From the IMG/VR virus record IMGVR_UViG_2663762810_000001: a stretch of DNA of 7,792 nucleotides. One strand, written 5' to 3'. The position numbers and the translations under genes were made by a program. The notes under the pieces are model-generated. The model was not told where the DNA came from and did no database searches. It was given only the letters and a program-made list of their open reading frames with translations. This document shows positions 1 to 7,792 of the stretch, in pieces. Position 1 is the first letter of the stretch, and the number at the start of each line of letters is the position of its first letter. Source of the stretch: a virus. Its lineage: Duplodnaviria; Heunggongvirae; Uroviricota; Caudoviricetes.

Positions 1-556
1 AGTCACCACTGCCGGAGCCTTCATAAGCAATATCAATGGCCACGGATTCGGTCGGGTTAAACTGCACGCCAGCCCCCCACGCCAGAGACGTGTTGCTGTG
101 GCGACCGTCATCACTTCCGGTCAGCACGTCGTGCGTTTTCCCCTTGTTGTCAGTTACGCGGAGATAATCCCCGGAGAAAGTCGACACACGGCTGTAAGCC
201 ATACCCGCCATCGCATACGCGCTGAACCATTCATTCACGCGCACAGACGGCCCCGCCATTACGCTGAACCAGCGGTTACGAACGGAATCTTCATGCCAGC
301 GGGTATTGCTGTAACGGGTCAGCTGGCGATTCTTGTCTCCTGCATAGCTGAATGACGTAACCAGCCCCAGCGTATCCGTAAACTCGTAGCGGTATTTCAC
401 GTTAATCCCGTTCAGATCATCGCTGCCGGGTACGTTGGTCCGGGCATGAAGATACCCCGCGCTCAGTGTGGACTGATGTTCAGACGCCCATGAAGGCGCA
501 CCGGATACGGCCAGACAGATGGCTGCGGACAAAATTGCTGCACAAACTTTACGCAT
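1..556 (-). CDS. lom: Lom outer-membrane protein (Ail/Lom/OmpX/PagC family), 3'-partial; about 20 C-terminal codons lie beyond the window start
   Basis: Minus-strand ATG at 556..554 preceded by GAGG (spacer 5 nt). My hand translation begins MRKVCAAILSAAICLAVSGAPSWASEHQSTLSAGYLHARTNVPGSDDLNGINVKYRYEFTDTLGLVTSFSYAGDKNRQL..., a signal peptide followed by near-identity to lambda Lom as I recall it. Frame stays open to position 2. Position immediately downstream of J matches lambda gene order. Not listed in the ORF track because it has no stop inside the window. Confidence 0.85.
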   Translation of the reverse strand, partial: MRKVCAAILSAAICLAVSGAPSWASEHQSTLSAGYLHARTNVPGSDDLNGINVKYRYEFTDTLGLVTSFSYAGDKNRQLTRYSNTRWHEDSVRNRWFSVMAGPSVRVNEWFSAYAMAGMAYSRVSTFSGDYLRVTDNKGKTHDVLTGSDDGRHSNTSLAWGAGVQFNPTESVAIDIAYEGSGSGD

Positions 557-580
557 AATTACCTCTCGCTTTTCTGCAAT

Positions 581-604
581 AAAAAAGGCGTCATTCCTGA
601 CGCC
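581..604 (-). terminator. Rho-independent terminator downstream of J (minus strand)
   Basis: Inverted repeat ggcgtca (587..593) / tgacgcc (598..604) with a 4-nt loop (ttcc). On the minus strand the stem is followed by TTTTTT (complement of aaaaaa at 581..586). It lies 23 nt past the J stop and upstream of the lom start. Confidence 0.6.
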
Positions 605-626
605 CTTTATTGGGGTTATAAATATT

Positions 627-3600
627 TCAACGAATACTGATGCCGGAAGCAGCCTTTTTGGTCACAATCACCGTACAGTCGGTGATATTACCTGCCCCCT
701 GATTGCCTTTCTGGAAAATCTTAAACTCCAGAGTGACGCTTCCTCTGCCACTCGGCATATCAATAACCGCACTGTAACTACCGGGAATGGCCCCTTTAGT
801 TTCTCTGGATGCGATTAATACGCCGTTTTTGCGAACTTCAAAACCATAACCTGTGTATCGCGTGCCTCCGGGGTTATTTCCGCTCCCCGGATCGTCATAC
901 GCCACACCGTTAAAAATAATGGGCGGAATAATGATTTGACGGTCAAAGTTATGATCATCGCTGATAGTGACTGTAACCGTCCCGTTTGGTGTTTCCGTGT
1001 TACCCCACGTACCAGCCTTCTTCGGGAATGATTTGGATACTGTTTTAACAAAATCGCCTCTGACCTGATTCGCCTCCAGCATGCCCTTAATCGTACAGTT
1101 CTCATTTATCTTGACGTTGTTTAGCGTCCCGGCGTTCGCATTCACACTGCCACTGATATCCGCATTTTTCGCCGTCAGTCGCCCGTCCGGTGTCAGGGAA
1201 AATGCCGGAGGATTACCGCCGCTGGTAATGGTGGGAGCCGTCAGGCGTTTCAGGAACACGTCGTTCATGAATATCTGATCGCCCTGCCCAACAAACATCG
1301 GCTTTGTGTTGCCATTCGCAGGATTAATCATCGCAATCCTGTCTGCCGCCAGCAGCACCTGACTCTGCATGCCGTCAGGGGTGTTCTCAATACCGGCACC
1401 AATACCCGCGATATAAAGGCGTCCGTCCTGCATCTGCTGCAGCTTCACAGCCCACATGCTGTTCAGGTTATTATTTGTATCAACCTGAACCTTCTGTATC
1501 TGCTGGATCGCTGCACTCTGGTCTTCCAGTTTCTTATTGACGGTCTGTGTGATTTCATTGCTGACATCCGTAATGGATGTCCTGATTTCAGCCAGGTCAG
1601 GCGCAAGCTGACCGTTATCAATCTGCGTCCACAGCTCCTGAGCCAGATGGGTTTTCCCTATCTCGCCTTTGAAAAAATCCAGATAGCCGGATGCGTCATC
1701 ACTCGGCTGACCAACAGCCTCCACGAATGCCGATTTGCCAACGGTGTTCACACTGCGAACGTAAAAATAATAATTATGGCCCGGCCTGATATTGATACTG
1801 GCGGCTATCCAGTACAGCGCCGTGCCAAGATAGCGTGCTGTGGTTTCAACCTGCCTGATATCGGTAATCCGCTTTTCCGAGAACCAGAACTCAAACTGTA
1901 CCGTCGGGTCATAAACGGCAAGATGCGGCGTGGCGGTTATCTGAAAATACCCCGGCGTCAGCTCAATCCGCGACGGTGCTACCGGTGCGGCAATCCGGAA
2001 CGATACCGACGCCGGATCGCCCTGCTGTCCCCACGCATTTACCGCCCGGACTGTCAGCGTGTACCGCCCCAGCGCCAGTTGCGTGAAGCGGTATGTGGTT
2101 TCCGTCGTCCGGGCCGTGCTGACCAGCCGCTCACTGCCGTCATCCGCTGCCACGGTCAGGCGAAGCATAAAGCTCACCCCCTTCACCACCTTCGGCGTGT
2201 CCCAGCGCGCCAGCACCTGGTATTCCCCGCTGTCTGCGGTGACTTCTGCGGTCAGGTGCTGTACTGCTGGCGGCGTGACGCCATTCACCGTGCCGCTCTG
2301 GTCGCCGTCAAAGTGCGCCCCGTTATCCACGATGGCCTCTTTTGCCGGTACATGCTGCACGGCGGTGATGGCATACGTGCCGTCGTCGTTCTCACGGATA
2401 CTCACGCAGCGGAACAGGCGCTGGCGCAGCGTCGGCAGCTTCAGTCCCCACACGCTGTATCCGGCAACGCCGTCAGGAACACGGCTCACTTTCACCTTCA
2501 CGCCGTCGGTGACGGACTGGACCTCCACGCTCACCGGATTGCCACTTCCGTCAACCAGGCTTATCAGCGTGGTGCCGGAGGATGGCAGCGTGATTTCACG
2601 GTCGAGCGTCAGCGTCCGGGTCTGGCTGTTCACCGCCAGCACGCGACCACCGGTGCTGATACCGGCATAGTCATCATCGCAGATTTCAATGACATCGCCC
2701 GGTACATGGCGAAGCCCTTCAGCACCCACGCTGAAATCCACGGTCTGCGTCTCCAGCAGTTCCGTTTTAATCAGCCACAGCCCGGCGCGGTGTGCCTGCC
2801 CCCGGCTGGTACAGCCAAAGGCATCCATCTTCGTGACATTACGACCGTAACGGGCAATGGCCTGCGTATCTTCAACAAGCTCTGTCGCCGTCTCCCAGCC
2901 GTTGTTCGGGTCAATCCAGTTCACCTCAACGGCATTATGGCGGTCCTTCAGGGCGCTGAAGCTGTAGCGGAACGGCGCGCCATCATCCGGCATCACCACA
3001 TTACTGCGGTTATAGGTCCACACCTTATCCGACGGTCGGTCCTGCACGAACGTCAGCGTCTGCCCGTTCCATACCGGCATACAGCGCATCGCCGAGCAGA
3101 AATCACTGAGCACATCCCACGCCTTTCGCTGTGTGGTCAGGTACGCATTACAGGCGATGCGCGGCTCCGTGCCGCCAAAGCCGTCCGGCACCGACTGGTC
3201 GCAATACTGGCCGATGACATACAGCGCCCATTTGTCCACATCCGCCGCACCAAGACGTTTCCCCATGCCGTAGCGCGGATGGGTCAGCATATCCCACAGA
3301 CACCATGCCATATTGTTGCTGTATGCCGGTTTAAACGTCCCGTCCCAGATACCGCTGTATTGCCGCGTCTGCGGGTTATAATTTGACGGCACCTGCAGAA
3401 TACGCCCGCGCAGATGATAATTACGGCTCACCTGCTGGCTGCCGAACTGCTCCGAGTCCACCTGCACGCCGACCAGTGCCGTGTTCGGGTAGCACTGTTT
3501 CACATCGATGATTTCAGTGTATGACGACCAGAGCGTTTTGTTCTGCAGCTGGTCTGTGGTGCTGTCCGGCGTCATCCTGCGCATCCGGATGTTGAACGGG

Positions 3601-4124
3601 CGCGGCGGCAGGTTACCCACCACCACCGAGGCCAGATACTGCGAGGTGGTTTTGCCCTTAATGGTGATGTCTTTTTCCGTCACCCAGCCACCATTACGCT
3701 GTATCTGAACCAGCAGGCGGACTTCCGACGGATTCCTGTCCCCCTTTGAGGTGGTTTCCACCAGTGCCTGCACGCCGAAGGTAAAACGCAGTCGGTCAAT
3801 GTTTGCCGACGTGATGGTCCGAGTGATCGGCGTGTCGTATTTCACTTCCGTACCCAGCACCGTCTCGGAGCCGGAGGATTCAAATCCCTCCGGCGGTGTC
3901 TGCTCCTGCTCACCGGCCCGGAACACCACCGTGACGCCGGAGATGTTGGTATTCCCCTCACTGTCCAGCACTGGCGTACTGTTCAGCAGCACGCTTTTTA
4001 ATCCATCCACCGGACCTTCAACCGGCCCTTCGCTGATGGCATCAATCACACTCAGCAGCTGCGTGGATTTCAGGTTGTCCTTCGCTTCGCGCGGGGTATG
4101 CCCCTTACTGCTGCCTTTACCCAT
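627..4124 (-). CDS. J: Tail-tip / host-specificity protein J (central tail fibre), 1165 aa, lambda-like with a divergent C-terminal region
   Basis: ORF-track protein begins [34 protein letters not shown]..., which matches the lambda gpJ N-terminus as I recall it, and similarity continues for about 1000 residues. Minus-strand GGAG lies 8 nt upstream of the ATG at 4124. It follows gene I after a 60-bp gap, the same spacing I recall for lambda. The last ~150 residues (roughly 627..1095) do not match lambda J as I remember it. Confidence 0.95.
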
Positions 4125-4184
4125 TCGTCATGCTCCATAAACGATAAAACCGCCCGGAGGCGGTTTCACATAAAACGTTTTTCA

Positions 4185-6035
4185 TCAGCGACCAATCACC
4201 ACAACCTGACCACCATCACCTTCATCTGCTGTGCTGATCTCCTGAGATACCACACGTGATCCCACGCGCATTTCACCGTACAGAACGGGCAGAACATTGC
4301 CCTGGGCAACCATATTATCCAGTGAAGAAAAATAGGTGTTCTGTTTGCCGTTATCCGTTGTCTGTGTGCGGGGGGTTTTGGGTTTAGGGGCCAGCATCTG
4401 TGCAACACCGCCAAGCGTCATACTGGCACCGAGAGAAAACAGCAGATTACTCGCCATAATTCCTACCCCCGGCATCCATATAGCAACCGCCATAACAGCC
4501 GCCCCCAGCACAGCCTGAAACACACCGCCACTTTTGGCTCCTGCCAGACGCGGCACGATATGGATCACAGCACCATTTGCCAGCGGTTCATTAAGACGGG
4601 CTGATAATTCCGTTTCACCTGTATCACGCCCGGCAATGCGTACCTGATACCAGCCGTCGCTCAGCTTCTGACGAAACGCCGGGATCTGCATGGCCAGCGC
4701 CCGGATGGCTTCGGCCCCCGTTTTCACACGCAGATCGATGCGGCGGACAAATCGTTGTAAATCCCCGTAAAGGCAGATGCGTGCCATGCCTGGTGACGCC
4801 AGAGGGAGTGTGTGCGTCGCTGCCATTTGGGAGTCGATACCGGCGGTCAGGTAAGCAACACGATCAGGAACGGGCGCTGAATAATGCTCTTTCCGCTCTG
4901 CCATCACTTCAGCATCCGGACGTTCGCCGATTTTCGCTTCCCACGTCTCACCGAGCGTGGTGTTCACGAAGGTTTTACGTTTTCCCGTATCCCCTTTCGT
5001 CTTCATCCAGTCTTTGACAATCTGCACCCAGGTGGTGAACGGGCTGTACGCTGTCCAGATGTGAAAGGTCACACTGTCAGGCGGTTCAATCTCTTCACCG
5101 GATGACGAAAACCAGAGAATGCCATCACGGGTCCAGATCCCGGTCTTTTCGCAGATATAACGGGCATCAGTGAAGTCCAGCTCCTGCTGACGGATGACGC
5201 AGGCGTTATGCTCGCAGAGATAAAACACGCTGGAGGGGTCATCCGGCGTCCATTTGAGGCCAAACGGCGTCTCTTTATCGCCAAATTTAAGGTACTGCTC
5301 CTCCCCGCAGTGCGGGCAGGCAACATGAAAACGCATAAAATGCGGGGATTCACTGGCTGCACGCTCAATCTGGCATGTGCCTCTCACTTTGGGCGTGGAG
5401 CCACGGATGGACTTTGGCCAGACCGAGCCTTCAATACGCTTATCGCCCAGGAACGTCGGAGAGCCTTCCTGTTCAATATCCTCATCAAAGGCAGCAAGTT
5501 CATCATAACCCGCCACATCCACCGACTTTTCACGGTAGTTTTTTGCCGCTTTACCGCCCAGGCACCAGAAGCCACGACCATTGGAAAAACGCTTCATGGT
5601 GAGCGTGTTATCCCGGTGCTTTTTGCCATACCACGGAGCCAGCGCCAGCAGCGACGGAATATCGCGGATGGTCGGCTCAACGTGGGTTTTCATAAAGTTC
5701 TCGGCATCACCATCCGTCGGCAACCAGATAAGGGTGTTGCGCTGCTTATGCTCTATGAAGTAGGCATAAACACCCAGCAGCATTTTGGAATAACCAACAC
5801 GGGCAGACTTCACCACATTCACCTCGCGGACGTAGTCACTGCCCATCGCATTCATGATGGCCCGCTGAAAGGGCAGTGTTTCCCAGCGCCCTTCCTGGTA
5901 TGCGGATTCTTTCGGGAGATAGTAATTGGCATCCGCCCATTCAACGGCGGTCTGTGGCTCCGGCCGGAACAGTGAGCGAAGCCCGGCGCGGACAAAATGC
6001 CGCAGCCTGTTAACCTGACTGTTCGATATATTCAC
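4185..6035 (-). CDS. A::I: In-frame fusion ORF: terminase large subunit gpA residues 1-403 (A-derived part 4827..6035) joined to a full-length tail assembly protein I (213 aa, I-derived part 4185..4826); probable deletion remnant, likely non-functional as a terminase
   Basis: Residues 1-403 (MNISNSQVNRLRHFVRAGLRSLFRPEPQTAVEWADANYYLPKES...DRVAYLTAGIDSQ) match lambda gpA as I recall it, including the GTG start (complement of cac at 6033..6035) that overlaps the Nu1 3' end. Residue 404 onward (MAATHTLPLASPGMARICLYGDLQRF...SQEISTADEGDGGQVVVIGR) matches lambda gpI from its own Met to its C-terminus. The junction is the minus-strand sequence GGT ATC GAC TCC CAA | ATG GCA GCG (window 4826/4827). Total 616 aa with no internal stop. 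Confidence 0.85.
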   Translation of the reverse strand: MNISNSQVNRLRHFVRAGLRSLFRPEPQTAVEWADANYYLPKESAYQEGRWETLPFQRAIMNAMGSDYVREVNVVKSARVGYSKMLLGVYAYFIEHKQRNTLIWLPTDGDAENFMKTHVEPTIRDIPSLLALAPWYGKKHRDNTLTMKRFSNGRGFWCLGGKAAKNYREKSVDVAGYDELAAFDEDIEQEGSPTFLGDKRIEGSVWPKSIRGSTPKVRGTCQIERAASESPHFMRFHVACPHCGEEQYLKFGDKETPFGLKWTPDDPSSVFYLCEHNACVIRQQELDFTDARYICEKTGIWTRDGILWFSSSGEEIEPPDSVTFHIWTAYSPFTTWVQIVKDWMKTKGDTGKRKTFVNTTLGETWEAKIGERPDAEVMAERKEHYSAPVPDRVAYLTAGIDSQMAATHTLPLASPGMARICLYGDLQRFVRRIDLRVKTGAEAIRALAMQIPAFRQKLSDGWYQVRIAGRDTGETELSARLNEPLANGAVIHIVPRLAGAKSGGVFQAVLGAAVMAVAIWMPGVGIMASNLLFSLGASMTLGGVAQMLAPKPKTPRTQTTDNGKQNTYFSSLDNMVAQGNVLPVLYGEMRVGSRVVSQEISTADEGDGGQVVVIGR

Positions 6036-6555
6036 TCAGCAACCCCGGTATCAGTTCATCCAGCGCGGCTGCTTTGTTCATGGCTTTGATGATATCCCGT
6101 TTCAGGAAATCAACATGTCGGTTTTCCAGTTCCGGAAAACGCCGCTGCACCGACAGGGGGATCCCGTCGAGAATACTGGCAATTTCACCTGCGATCCGCG
6201 ACAGCACGAAAGTACAGAATGCGGTTTCCACCACTTCAGCGGAGTCTCTGGCATTCTTCAGTTCCTGTGCGTCGGCCTGCGCACGCGTAAGTCGATGGCG
6301 TTCGTACTCAATAGTCCCTGGCTGGAGATCTGCCTCGCGGGCCTGCCGCAGTTCTTCAACCTCCCGGCGCAGCTTTTCGTTCTCAATTTCAGCATCCCTT
6401 TCGGCATACCATTTTATAACGGCGGCAGAGTCATAAAGCACCTCATTACCCTTGCCACCGCCTCGCAGAACGGGCATTCCCTGTTCCTGCCAGTTCTGAA
6501 TGGTACGGATACTCGCACCGAAAATGTCAGCCAGCTGCTTTTTGTTGACTTCCAT
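6010..6555 (-). CDS. nu1: Terminase small subunit Nu1 (cosB-binding, wing-helix DNA-binding N-terminus), 181 aa
   Basis: ORF-track protein MEVNKKQLADIFGASIRTIQNWQEQGMPVLRGGGKGNEVLYDSAAVIKWYAERDAEIENEKL...EYIEQSG is essentially lambda gpNu1 over its full length as I recall it. The 3' end overlaps the A start by 26 nt as in lambda. It lies directly downstream of cosB. Confidence 0.95.
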   Translation of the reverse strand: MEVNKKQLADIFGASIRTIQNWQEQGMPVLRGGGKGNEVLYDSAAVIKWYAERDAEIENEKLRREVEELRQAREADLQPGTIEYERHRLTRAQADAQELKNARDSAEVVETAFCTFVLSRIAGEIASILDGIPLSVQRRFPELENRHVDFLKRDIIKAMNKAAALDELIPGLLSEYIEQSG

Positions 6556-6576
6556 TGTTCATTCCACGGCCAAAAA

Positions 6577-6775
6577 CAGAGAAAGGAAACGACAGAGGCC
6601 AAAAAGCCCGTTTTCAGCACCTGTCGTTTCCTTTCTTTTTAGGGGGTGTTTTAAATAAAAACATGAAGTTACGGCGAAGAAGAACGGAAACGCCTTAAGC
6701 CGGAAAATTTTCATAAATAGCGAAAACCCGCGAGGTCGCCGCCCCGTAACCTGTCGGATCGCCGGAAAGGACCCG
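6577..6775. other. cos: cos site (cohesive-end packaging site): cosB with Nu1-binding R1, R2, R3 elements and IHF-site region, cosN, and the expected cosQ position
   Basis: Positions 6733..6744 (aggtcgccgccc) are the complement of GGGCGGCGACCT, the 12-nt lambda cohesive end. The adjacent 6745..6757 complement reads ...CCGACAGGTTACG, the lambda right terminus. Three copies of the R-element core GGAAACG sit between cosN and Nu1: R3 about 6680..6695, R2 6621..6635 (inverted), R1 6581..6595. R1 and R2 form a perfect 15-bp inverted repeat (gaaaggaaacgacag / ctgtcgtttcctttc). The AT-rich stretch 6640..6672 corresponds to where IHF site I1 lies in lambda. cosQ is expected about 6760..6775 by position. 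Confidence 0.9.
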
Positions 6776-7500: not shown

Positions 7501-7792
7501 ATGAAAAAAATGTTGTTTTCTGCCGCTCTGGCAATGCTTATTACAGGATGTGCTCAACAGACGTTTACTGTTGGAAACAAACCGACAGCAGTAACACCAA
7601 AGGAAACCATCACCCATCACTTCTTCGTTTCGGGAATTGGACAGGAGAAAACTGTTGATGCAGCCAAAATTTGTGGCGGCGCAGAAAATGTTGTTAAAAC
7701 AGAAACCCAGCAAACATTCGTAAATGGATTGCTCGGTTTTATTACTTTAGGCATTTATACTCCGCTGGAAGCGCGTGTGTATTGCTCACAAT
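7501..7792 (+). CDS. bor: Bor lipoprotein (serum-resistance lipoprotein, Iss/Bor family); all 97 codons present, stop codon truncated by the window end
   Basis: ATG at 7501 with AGGA 7 nt upstream. My translation is MKKMLFSAALAMLITGCAQQTFTVGNKPTAVTPKETITHHFFVSGIGQEKTVDAAKICGGAENVVKTETQQTFVNGLLGFITLGIYTPLEARVYCSQ, with a lipobox (LITGC) and near-identity to lambda Bor as I recall it. Absent from the ORF track only because no stop lies inside the window. Position and orientation relative to cos match lambda. Confidence 0.9.
   Translation, partial: MKKMLFSAALAMLITGCAQQTFTVGNKPTAVTPKETITHHFFVSGIGQEKTVDAAKICGGAENVVKTETQQTFVNGLLGFITLGIYTPLEARVYCSQ

Follow-up and report, generated by a model that had tools for sequence, protein, structure and literature searches.

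The window analysed here, a stretch of 7792 nucleotides that is one entire draft contig ending inside lom on one side and at bor on the other, raises the question of what kind of J gene is preserved in this lambdoid locus, which receptor its product may recognize, and how the gene came to stand there. The features concerned are the following, with positions in the window and strand.

1–556, minus strand: lom, encoding the Ail/Lom outer membrane protein; codons 1–185 of about 199 are present (PHROG 108, match 1–185 of 199).
587–604, no strand assigned: GC-rich hairpin just 3′ of the J stop codon, from a pattern scan.
627–4124, minus strand: J (tail tip attachment/host specificity protein), a single unbroken ORF of 1165 amino acids plus stop.
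630–1124, minus strand: receptor-binding ('specificity') module (RBD) of J, residues ~1001–1165, supported by segment identities, Pfam and an AF2 model.
1125–1274, minus strand: conserved linker, J nucleotides 2851–3000, residues ~951–1000, 93% identical to lambda at the nucleotide level.
1335–1694, minus strand: second variable module of J, residues 811–930 (alpha-helical shaft and top of the beta-prism fibre).
1695–4124, minus strand: conserved N-terminal 810 residues of J (hub domains and two FNIII/Ig domains).
4185–6035, minus strand: A′–I fusion ORF of 616 amino acids, with Pfam matches to GpA_ATPase, GpA_nuclease (partial) and Lambda_tail_I.
6010–6555, minus strand: nu1 (terminase small subunit), intact (Pfam Phage_Nu1, E=5e-100).
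6733–6744, minus strand: 12-base cohesive end of cosN, GGGCGGCGACCT, an exact match to lambda positions 1–12.
7501–7792, plus strand: bor (serum-resistance lipoprotein), at the contig end (PHROG 260, match 1–97 of 97; Pfam Lambda_Bor).

The integrity of J, claimed by a previous sequence-only reading of this DNA, is borne out by comparison with lambda J (1132 amino acids). BLASTP produced one alignment, of residues 1–1164 onto 1–1131; the two proteins are colinear and 82% identical overall, with 0 frameshifts and 0 premature stops from end to end. All six gpJ Pfam models (FNIII-A_GpJ, Phage-tail_3, Ig_J, Ig_J_second, Phage_Tail_Tip and Ig_GpJ_C) scored above their curated cut-offs and in the same order as in lambda, which amounts to the full gpJ architecture. 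By this domain series and its colinearity, the window J qualifies as a predicted full-length tail tip attachment protein of the lambda type.

The similarity to lambda J is, nevertheless, unevenly distributed along the protein. Residues 1–810 are 97.0% identical to lambda, with the corresponding DNA being 89–99% identical and free of mismatches over stretches as long as 206 nt, whereas the identity falls to 45.7% (28 gap columns) in residues 811–930, rises to 86.2% in residues 931–1010 and falls again to 38.4% (13 gap columns) in residues 1011–1165. The previous description of the first ~1000 residues as matching lambda thus applies only outside residues 811–930. As for the last ~150 residues, which had been said not to match lambda, they are indeed strongly diverged, and the alternative that they might prove close to lambda J after all does not agree with the value of 38.4%; they are still, however, an alignable homologue. 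The divergent block had been placed at positions 627–1095, which is correct to about 30 bases, as blastn similarity of the J DNA to lambda ends at position 1071 and identity in 150-nt bins drops from 93% to ~50% past J nucleotide 3000 (window 1124). Compared with lambda gpJ itself (P03749; PDB 8IYK, 8XCJ and 8XCK), the window protein has the same domain order, RBD fold and Pfam family, but it departs from lambda in the shaft module, which is 28 residues longer and has an identity of 46%, and in the RBD, where the identity is 38% and indels affect those loop regions through which lambda gpJ touches LamB.

What, then, is the divergent C-terminus? Residues 1029–1164 (window 633–1040) match PF12421 (Ig_GpJ_C) with E=4e-25 and 88.8 bits, well above the gathering threshold of 26.2 bits, and a phmmer search of the RBD against PDB retrieved 9wca (E=4e-36) and lambda gpJ 8xcj (E=1e-24). 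Structure prediction, which had been proposed as a check, gave an AF2 model with a pLDDT of 78, for which Foldseek found 9wcb, 9wca, 8xck and 8xcj at TM scores of 0.67–0.70 and E ~1e-15. The best match was the A8 gpJ class (9wcb represents A8 gpJ with OmpC), and the model also superposes on lambda gpJ with LamB (8xcj) at a TM score of ~0.7. These Pfam, PDB and fold matches exclude an unrelated, non-homologous domain; judged by sequence and by the predicted fold, the end of J is homologous to the lambda RBD, though strongly diverged from it, and does not represent a foreign domain.

The search for the closest RBD family, likewise proposed beforehand, led to a sharply delimited class. It comprises 74 phage records that are 94.8–98.1% identical to the window over the last 155 residues and includes the named phages mEp460 (98% in the RBD), Ayreon (95%), cdtI and 2851; no matches fall between 60% and 90%, and the next level below the class lies at 45% or less. 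Membership of the LamB-specific lambda class, for which we required at least 90% identity to lambda residues ~980–1132, is contradicted by the 38.4% identity and by the lack of any blastn match past position 1071. The same threshold applied to the A8 RBD places the window outside the OmpC-binding A8/phi330 class, with 46% identity to the A8 RBD and 43–45% to class members by tblastn. Among RBD classes whose receptor has been established by experiment and whose structure is solved, that of the A8/phi330 proteins (PDB 9WCA and 9WCB) is nevertheless the closest, differing from the window RBD in loop lengths as well. We also considered the Eligo 1A2 variant, but the window's protein and DNA strings have no match in the Nature 2024 supplement, and the 1A2 C-terminus (...SDLLVVVMKKATAGITIS), as read from supplement text with dropped bases, belongs to another RBD class.

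The second divergent segment, previously described as Q/N-rich and heptad-like, indeed has both properties. Its Q/N content is 20.6%, as opposed to 10.6% for the whole J, and a hydrophobic periodicity of 3.5 residues extends over residues 843–893, a value reached by 19 of 2000 shuffled sequences. Relative to lambda, it contains an insertion of 28 residues, i.e. four heptads, at about residues 836–863 (window ~1536–1619). The domain names shaft and beta-prism follow Ge & Wang (2024, PMC11101478). This module is 100% identical to those of Ayreon and the UR21 prophage J.

Between the two variable modules lies the conserved linker, flanked by bins with 42–67% and ~50% identity to lambda. Residues 961–990 are 93–97% identical in lambda, Ayreon, mEp460, PhiR30_1 and UR21; for phi330, which is more distant, the value is 87%. 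Such a distribution suggests that the linker, at window positions 1125–1274, is likely the crossover site between the modules, and it was because of this conserved linker that Brodel et al. (2024, PMC11338833) set the fusion point of their engineered gpJ at lambda residue 964. Identities in 30-residue bins and in whole segments further indicate that shaft and RBD assort independently: lambda J combines a short shaft with the LamB RBD, mEp460 J a short shaft with the RBD of the window class, the J proteins of the window and Ayreon a long shaft with the mEp460/Ayreon-class RBD, the UR21 prophage J a long shaft with a 1A2-like RBD, and PhiR30_1 J a short shaft with the A8 RBD. The window J may accordingly be viewed as three blocks, namely a lambda-like hub/FNIII part (residues 1–810), a long shaft (811–930) and the RBD (~1001–1165). 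Maddamsetti et al. (2018, PMC6646904), who included mEp460, cdtI and Ayreon among nine lambdoid proteomes compared, reported that the J 'specificity region' (lambda residues 960–1132) circulates as an independent module with its own phylogeny and lineage-defining indels; the boundaries of their module equal those of the divergent block described here, and we see no substantive difference between the two.

The allele itself is widespread. The exact J protein is already present in NCBI as an E. coli host specificity protein J, in a 90% cluster with 34,633 members; coliphages carrying the allele have been sequenced by the dozen, and E. coli prophages with it number in the thousands. The J proteins of Ayreon (MF807953), mEp332, cdtI, ev099 and PhiR42_1 have 1165 residues and are 95–96% identical to the window J at the nucleotide and 98% at the amino acid level; the Ayreon-type J has the RBD as well as the long shaft in common with it, but sits in complete plaque-forming or inducible phages, whereas the window J lies behind a deletion of head and tail-shaft genes. 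Carriers of the RBD class include Stx1a and Stx2c phages, some Stx2a and Stx2d phages and cdtI phages. All named relatives of the window come from Escherichia or Shigella, which leads us to reject a host outside Escherichia. By these sequence comparisons, the window J is an ordinary, already known natural allele and nothing unusual.

Which receptor this RBD class uses is a question that homology cannot answer by name, because RBD classes 35–46% identical to each other use different porins, LamB or OmpC. Of the gpJ-type classes for which a receptor has been reported, that of lambda binds LamB, and those of 434, A8/phi330 and 1A2 bind OmpC (for A8 and 1A2, see Brodel et al. 2024, PMC11338833; for phi330, PMC12502783). 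A full-text literature search revealed no receptor for mEp460, mEp332, cdtI, Ayreon, 2851, Kati or the PhiR phages, with Refardt (2011), which may tabulate that of mEp332, outside the texts covered. Phage 434 is absent among the 60 of the 74 class members listed. In lambda, loops of gpJ insert into LamB and the tail opens (Ge & Wang 2024, PMC11101478). By homology with lambda, the J trimer of a functional phage carrying the window allele would close the tail tip, and four variable loops at the bottom of its C-terminal Ig-like domains would enter a trimeric porin of the outer membrane, an insertion that would trigger tail opening as it does with lambda and LamB or A8 and OmpC. Since the bottom loops are precisely what differs, the receptor specificity of the window allele should differ from that of lambda, and the earlier suggestion of a different receptor is a reasonable expectation given the other natural classes that use OmpC. 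The use of OmpC cannot be confidently transferred from A8/phi330, because the RBD is 46% identical and the loop lengths are not the same. We consider a trimeric porin the probable receptor, OmpC being the leading candidate at somewhat short of even chances, followed by another porin or outer-membrane protein as a serious contender, and LamB as a distinctly less probable one.

That the divergent C-terminus might still target LamB, as a variant adapted to a particular LamB allele with no switch of receptor, was already raised in the sequence-only reading. Such a variant would fit the fold and family shared with the lambda RBD, and the hosts on record for several phages of the class derive from K-12 and hence possess LamB. 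It sits less well with the low identity to the lambda RBD and the indels in all variable loop regions, with the OmpC specificity of the most similar class whose receptor is known, and with the fact that 434, A8/phi330 and 1A2 all use OmpC, LamB being used in lambda; we therefore regard it as improbable, although worth bearing in mind. Comparably speculative is the idea that the RBD class recognizes a receptor other than LamB, OmpC and OmpF, undescribed for lambdoid central fibres, and that remnants of this kind constitute a standing pool of such specificities. If true, the Stx1a and Stx2c phages would also draw their specificity from this remnant pool. On the same speculative line, the four additional heptads of the shaft, which assort independently, might tune the reach of the fibre through O-antigen or capsule.

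The surroundings of J document how the prophage was reduced. By blastn, lambda position 1918 is joined to lambda position 14770 at window 4828/4829, and the contig lacks the equivalent of lambda 1919–14769, which comprises the 3′ part of A and the genes from W to K. On the nu1/A′ side the window is 97% identical to lambda 1–1918 at the nucleotide level, and about 402 codons of A′, the terminase large subunit, are fused in frame to a complete gene I (window 4185–4826). None of the tail genes M, L, K, H and V adjoins J in the window, but the earlier statement that every other tail gene is lacking does not hold, as gene I is complete. Since stf and tfa, the immunity region and the integration site would all lie past the contig ends, this census of genes covers the bor-to-lom contig only. 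The truncation of lom reflects the contig end and not a deletion, and intact relatives carry a full lom of 199 amino acids after J. A scan of the window for promoters and terminators yielded no more sites than in shuffled sequence; the hairpin at 587–604 is singled out here because Ayreon and mEp460 have an annotated rho-independent terminator at this position.

Although the evidence consists of a single junction in an assembly of the short-read type, in which the window is a whole draft contig of 7.8 kb, the junction would be readily explained by a single illegitimate deletion that removed the equivalent of lambda 1919–14769, joined A in frame to the complete I, and left bor, cos, nu1, A′–I, J and lom. 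Homology at the junction is limited to a 'CA' microhomology of 2 bp together with an imperfect match, GGTAT(A)CCGAC. Having lost essential morphogenesis genes, the locus qualifies, as far as a single draft contig allows, as a putative defective lambdoid prophage. In window positions 1–4829 (I–J–lom), three differences, all of them synonymous, separate it from intact prophages with complete head and tail gene sets; this points to a very recent deletion and strongly supports one of the two options previously offered. Among complete E. coli genomes, none contains the whole window at 99% identity or more; the nearest architectures, in UR21/11-869 and AJ1, represent comparable independent deletions with other junctions.

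It may be asked whether the A′–I join is an assembler chimera, the real J lying beside K, L, M and H in an intact prophage. The window is, after all, a short contig taken whole from a draft assembly, I–J–lom is 99.94% identical to intact prophages elsewhere, and a 100%-identical Logan contig (SRR1783866, window 212–4777) stops 51 bp before the junction, as it would at a graph branch. De Bruijn assemblers, however, join sequences where k-mers overlap exactly over tens of bases, whereas the sides of the junction share only the 2-bp overlap and an imperfect similarity of 10–11 bp; the same contig is, moreover, reported from two samples, and deletions of the same type with other junctions exist in two complete genomes. 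A chimera is thus quite unlikely, and we favour with considerable confidence the interpretation of the locus as a very recently deleted lambda-like E. coli prophage with an ordinary three-block J allele.

On this account, the J of the remnant owes its integrity to the recency of the deletion and not to any demonstrable selection. That J has been kept by selection, as a donor cassette for host range or in a domesticated role for the host or passing phages, seems to us very improbable: the three of three synonymous differences are weakly compatible with purifying selection, terminase-to-I/J deletions sparing I–J–lom recur in other strains, and phage fitness rose when lambda J recombined with a relict copy, but three substitutions are too few and may predate the deletion, having arisen in active phage lineages, J is frameshifted in the comparable AJ1 remnant, so that such copies decay, no mechanism selects in the host for a gene benefiting a superinfecting phage, and the exact remnant was found in one contig only.

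A recently stranded J could still serve infecting phages. The product of the remnant J cannot, presumably, be mounted on a tail, but its shaft and RBD modules may yet pass, through homologous recombination, into a lambdoid phage that superinfects the cell, and the previously suggested role as a host-range reservoir is plausible, with direct precedents from experiments. Recombination between lambda J and ECB_00512, a relict gene of E. coli B resembling J, was accompanied by a doubling of phage fitness (Borin et al., bioRxiv 10.1101/2020.11.02.365361), and lambda gains DNA from defective prophages at frequencies of 2e-6 to ~2e-4 (De Paepe et al. 2014, PMC3945230). ECB_00512 (E. coli B REL606) and the genes of DLP12, Rac and Qin (K-12) resemble the window J in being defective-prophage genes with long homology to lambdoid phages; recombination into infecting lambda has been demonstrated for them, whereas for the window J it is possible in principle. 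In addition, ECB_00512 seems to be N-terminally shorter than J (positions 1545–2796 of J correspond to 882–2217 of ECB_00512), while the window J is full length. A clean swap of the RBD into lambda would be hampered by poor homology downstream of the module, where blastn detects only two patches in lom with ~80% identity.

With a receptor assigned to this very common RBD class, the host range of toxin-converting phages would become easier to predict, and lambda vectors engineered for delivery would gain a further module; the question is better served by the isolated phages Ayreon, mEp332 and mEp460 than by the remnant, which matters little by itself. What the locus does is illustrate two established facts: that the J gene of lambdoid phages is a mosaic whose receptor-binding end is swapped as a cassette, and that defective prophages keep intact copies open to recombination with infecting phages.

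The J gene is intact, as one open frame of 1165 codons, and comparison with the 1132-residue lambda J supports the sequence-only reading in placing a diverged C-terminus at window positions 627-1095 and a second divergent segment inside the protein. The segments compare as follows (residue numbers refer to the window's J unless lambda is named).

Identity of the window's J to lambda J by segment
Residues 1-810: 97.0%
Residues 811-930 (the shaft module): 45.7%, with 28 gap columns
Residues 931-1010: 86.2%
Residues 1011-1165 (within the receptor-binding domain, RBD): 38.4%

At the DNA level, identity in 150-nt bins is 42-67% over J nucleotides 2401-2850, comes back up to 93% at 2851-3000, and lies at 47-56% from 3000 to the gene end.

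This allele is very common and already known. The whole gene shares 95-96% DNA identity with Ayreon, PhiR42_1, Kati, mEp332, ev099, cdtI and phi458, and the Ayreon J protein is 98% identical. The closest family of the C-terminus is the mEp460/cdtI/Ayreon/2851 class (hereafter the window's class): 74 phage records share its last 155 residues at 94.8-98.1% identity, among them mEp460, Tritos, Perceval, the Stx2c phage 2851, Stx2a_WGPS6 and many Stx1a/Stx2c phages. The next-best RBD class is at most 45% identical and nothing falls between 45% and 94.8%, so that J receptor-binding domains form discrete classes. An identical 1165-aa protein is present in NCBI ("host specificity protein J [Escherichia coli]"), and the 90% cluster of the protein has 34,633 members. 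Annotated fragments of the window's class come from E. coli, E. albertii and Shigella sonnei, and close relatives in species-representative genomes are restricted to Escherichia, setting aside one contig of a Collinsella sp. MAG. That contig (JAGZNZ010000056.1, 1350 bp) carries an E. coli-type J RBD of the window's class at 97% identity, and its assignment to Collinsella is almost certainly a binning error.

The C-terminus is homologous to the lambda receptor-binding domain, though diverged from it. Residues 1029-1164 score 88.8 bits (cut-off 26.2) against Pfam Ig_GpJ_C (PF12421), and phmmer against PDB sequences retrieves "A8 gpJ 713" (9wca; E=4e-36) and lambda gpJ bound to LamB (8xcj; E=1e-24). 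Structure prediction, which the sequence-only reading had proposed, gave an AlphaFold2 model of residues 988-1165 (mean pLDDT 78) whose predicted fold is that of the solved lambda and A8 gpJ RBDs: Foldseek matched it to 9wcb (A8 gpJ bound to OmpC of EDL933), 9wca, 8xck and 8xcj (E ~1e-15, TM ~0.7), with no comparable match beyond these four. The Pfam, PDB-sequence and fold matches together rule out a foreign domain. An alignment of many natural variants reveals a conserved framework (GD.VK...FP, G.T.TV..DD..FDRQ, NG..I, DMP.G.G..L.F and V.KK...GI.I) broken by four variable stretches with indels. Lambda gpJ inserts four bottom loops into LamB (Ge & Wang 2024, PMC11101478), and the variable stretches, by position rather than residue-level mapping, would be their counterparts. 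Compared with lambda or A8, the first two variable loops of the window's RBD are longer and the last one is shorter. The window's class (630-1040 in the window) also lacks a cysteine that all other aligned classes have at one position, in the context Y(S/D)xC or W(T/D)xC plus a following aliphatic residue; its cysteine sits instead in the C-terminal strand (ITDCTV).

The internal segment had been described as Q/N-rich and heptad-like, and both properties are borne out: its Q/N content is 20.6% (10.6% in the whole protein), and a hydrophobic periodicity of 3.5 residues at residues 843-893 was reached by just 19 of 2000 shuffles. According to Ge & Wang 2024 (PMC11101478), the equivalent stretch of the lambda structure forms the three-helix "alpha-helical shaft" and the top of the beta-prism fibre; the 28 additional residues of the window's shaft amount to four heptads. 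The shaft module (window 1335-1694) and the RBD module (window 630-1124) assort independently, in at least four combinations among natural J genes.

Shaft and RBD modules in natural J genes
Lambda: short shaft, LamB-class RBD
mEp460: short shaft, RBD of the window's class
Window and Ayreon: long shaft (28 extra residues), RBD of the window's class
UR21/11-869 prophage: long shaft, 1A2-like RBD
PhiR30_1: short shaft, A8-class RBD

Exchange of fibre length is therefore separate from exchange of receptor specificity. Between the two modules lies a conserved linker (residues 961-990), the position corresponding to the engineering fusion point at lambda residue 964 used by Brodel et al. 2024 (PMC11338833). 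Such exchange is the behaviour already published for the J "specificity region" (lambda residues 960-1132), which circulates as a module; mEp460, cdtI and Ayreon were among the nine phage proteomes compared in that study (Maddamsetti et al. 2018, PMC6646904).

The phage late genes of the window follow the gene order of lambda, all of them on the minus strand.

Features of the window
7501-7792, plus strand: bor, at the contig end
6944-7138, plus strand: DUF3950/ylcI-like gene
6733-6744: exact cosN
6010-6555, minus strand: intact nu1
4185-6035, minus strand: 616-aa ORF (A'-I)
627-4124, minus strand: J
1-556, minus strand: first 185 codons of lom

Two blastn blocks (lambda 1-1918 with window 4828-6744, 97%; lambda 14770-18002 with window 1628-4829, 91.5%) abut, so the equivalent of lambda 1919-14769 is missing: A has lost its 3' part, and entirely absent are W, B, C, nu3, D, E, FI, FII, Z, U, V, G, T, H, M, L and K. 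The earlier statement that every other tail gene is lacking thus holds for H, M, L, K, V and others, but not for gene I, which is complete. The 616-aa ORF joins a terminase fragment A' (~402 codons; ATPase domain and the beginning of the nuclease domain) in frame to the 213-aa gene I, 3 bases upstream of the I ATG. This chimeric ORF was found in only this one contig, and its frame was probably kept by chance. The exact cosN and intact nu1 persist although A is truncated, and this chromosomal cos could in principle be cut by the terminase of a superinfecting lambdoid phage.

The window is the entire contig JXWI01000040.1 (7792 bp) of the draft assembly GCA_000948905.1, and statements on the flanks of the locus are therefore unsupported. 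The visible sequence stops at bor and inside lom, accessory genes that both recur in other lambdoid prophages retrieved for comparison and are probably genes where short-read contigs split. At the A'|I junction (4828/4829) the parental sequences share just "CA" and an imperfect GGTAT(A)CCGAC match, which fits an illegitimate deletion. That the join is an assembly chimera is improbable, given that an assembler's k-mer join would need a longer shared sequence and that the contig is reported in two samples. As to the age of the deletion, window 1-4829 (lom', J, I, to the junction) matches prophages of three further assemblies at 99.94% identity, and these prophages have full C, D, E, FI, FII, Z, U, V, G, T, H, M, L, K, I, J, lom, stf and tfa. 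Each of the three base differences falls within J and is synonymous, since the J protein is identical. The deletion is therefore very recent, one of the two readings that had been proposed, and this explains why J is intact. Two complete E. coli genomes hold independent deletions from packaging genes to I/J with I-J kept: UR21/11-869 (NZ_OU342919.1 4676788-4683018) has A'-K'-I-J, with the 1A2-like RBD, beside tRNA-Ser, and AJ1 (NZ_OZ547217.1 3730461-3734991) has nohD-I-J, with J frameshifted, at the bio/att-lambda site. Together with ECB_00512 of E. coli B, they suggest that such I-J remnants recur.

The proposal that this J is a reservoir for superinfecting lambdoid phages is plausible, and it has experimental precedent at comparable loci. 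During coevolution lambda J took up ~1.3 kb of the relict gene ECB_00512, and in competition the phage growth rate doubled when the host was the most resistant one, malT- ompF- (Borin et al., bioRxiv 10.1101/2020.11.02.365361). DLP12, Rac and Qin likewise donate markers to lambda, at frequencies of 2e-6 to ~2e-4, chiefly via Red-beta (De Paepe et al. 2014, PMC3945230). On the left the window offers lambda 2.4 kb at 89-99%, including uninterrupted matches as long as 206 nt, and a 150-nt linker at 93%. On the right the homology to lambda is poor and consists of two lom patches (56 and 84 nt) at ~80% (blastn). Judging by these matches, a lambdoid phage whose lom resembles the window's would make a better recipient than lambda PaPa. 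The original observation is confirmed and its interpretation partly supported.

The lambda RBD class uses LamB, and the A8 and 1A2 classes use OmpC (Brodel et al. 2024, PMC11338833; for A8 also the title of 9wcb). Phage phi330 is OmpC-dependent, as established by Keio knockout and complementation (PMC12502783), and OmpC is cited as the receptor of phage 434. Our comparison puts the phi330 RBD at 99% identity to the A8 class, which ties together two OmpC assignments made independently. The annotated start of the phi330 "tail fiber protein" (PV189401.1 17482-20610) aligns with approximately residue 118 of J, so that the true start may lie further upstream. Identity of the window's class is 46% to A8/phi330, 42% to 1A2-like and 38% to lambda, and because classes equally far apart use different porins, its receptor is not readable by homology; we found no assignment in the accessible literature. 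We provisionally infer a trimeric porin. OmpC is the most likely candidate, at somewhat less than even chances; a receptor other than OmpC or LamB is quite conceivable, and LamB itself is rather unlikely. Several members of the window's class have K-12-derived recorded hosts (K12 for Ayreon, MG1655 for mEp332 and PhiR34_1, MC1061 for phi458), so the receptor is presumably present on K-12. The allele, the modular J and the recombination-reservoir concept are all already known.
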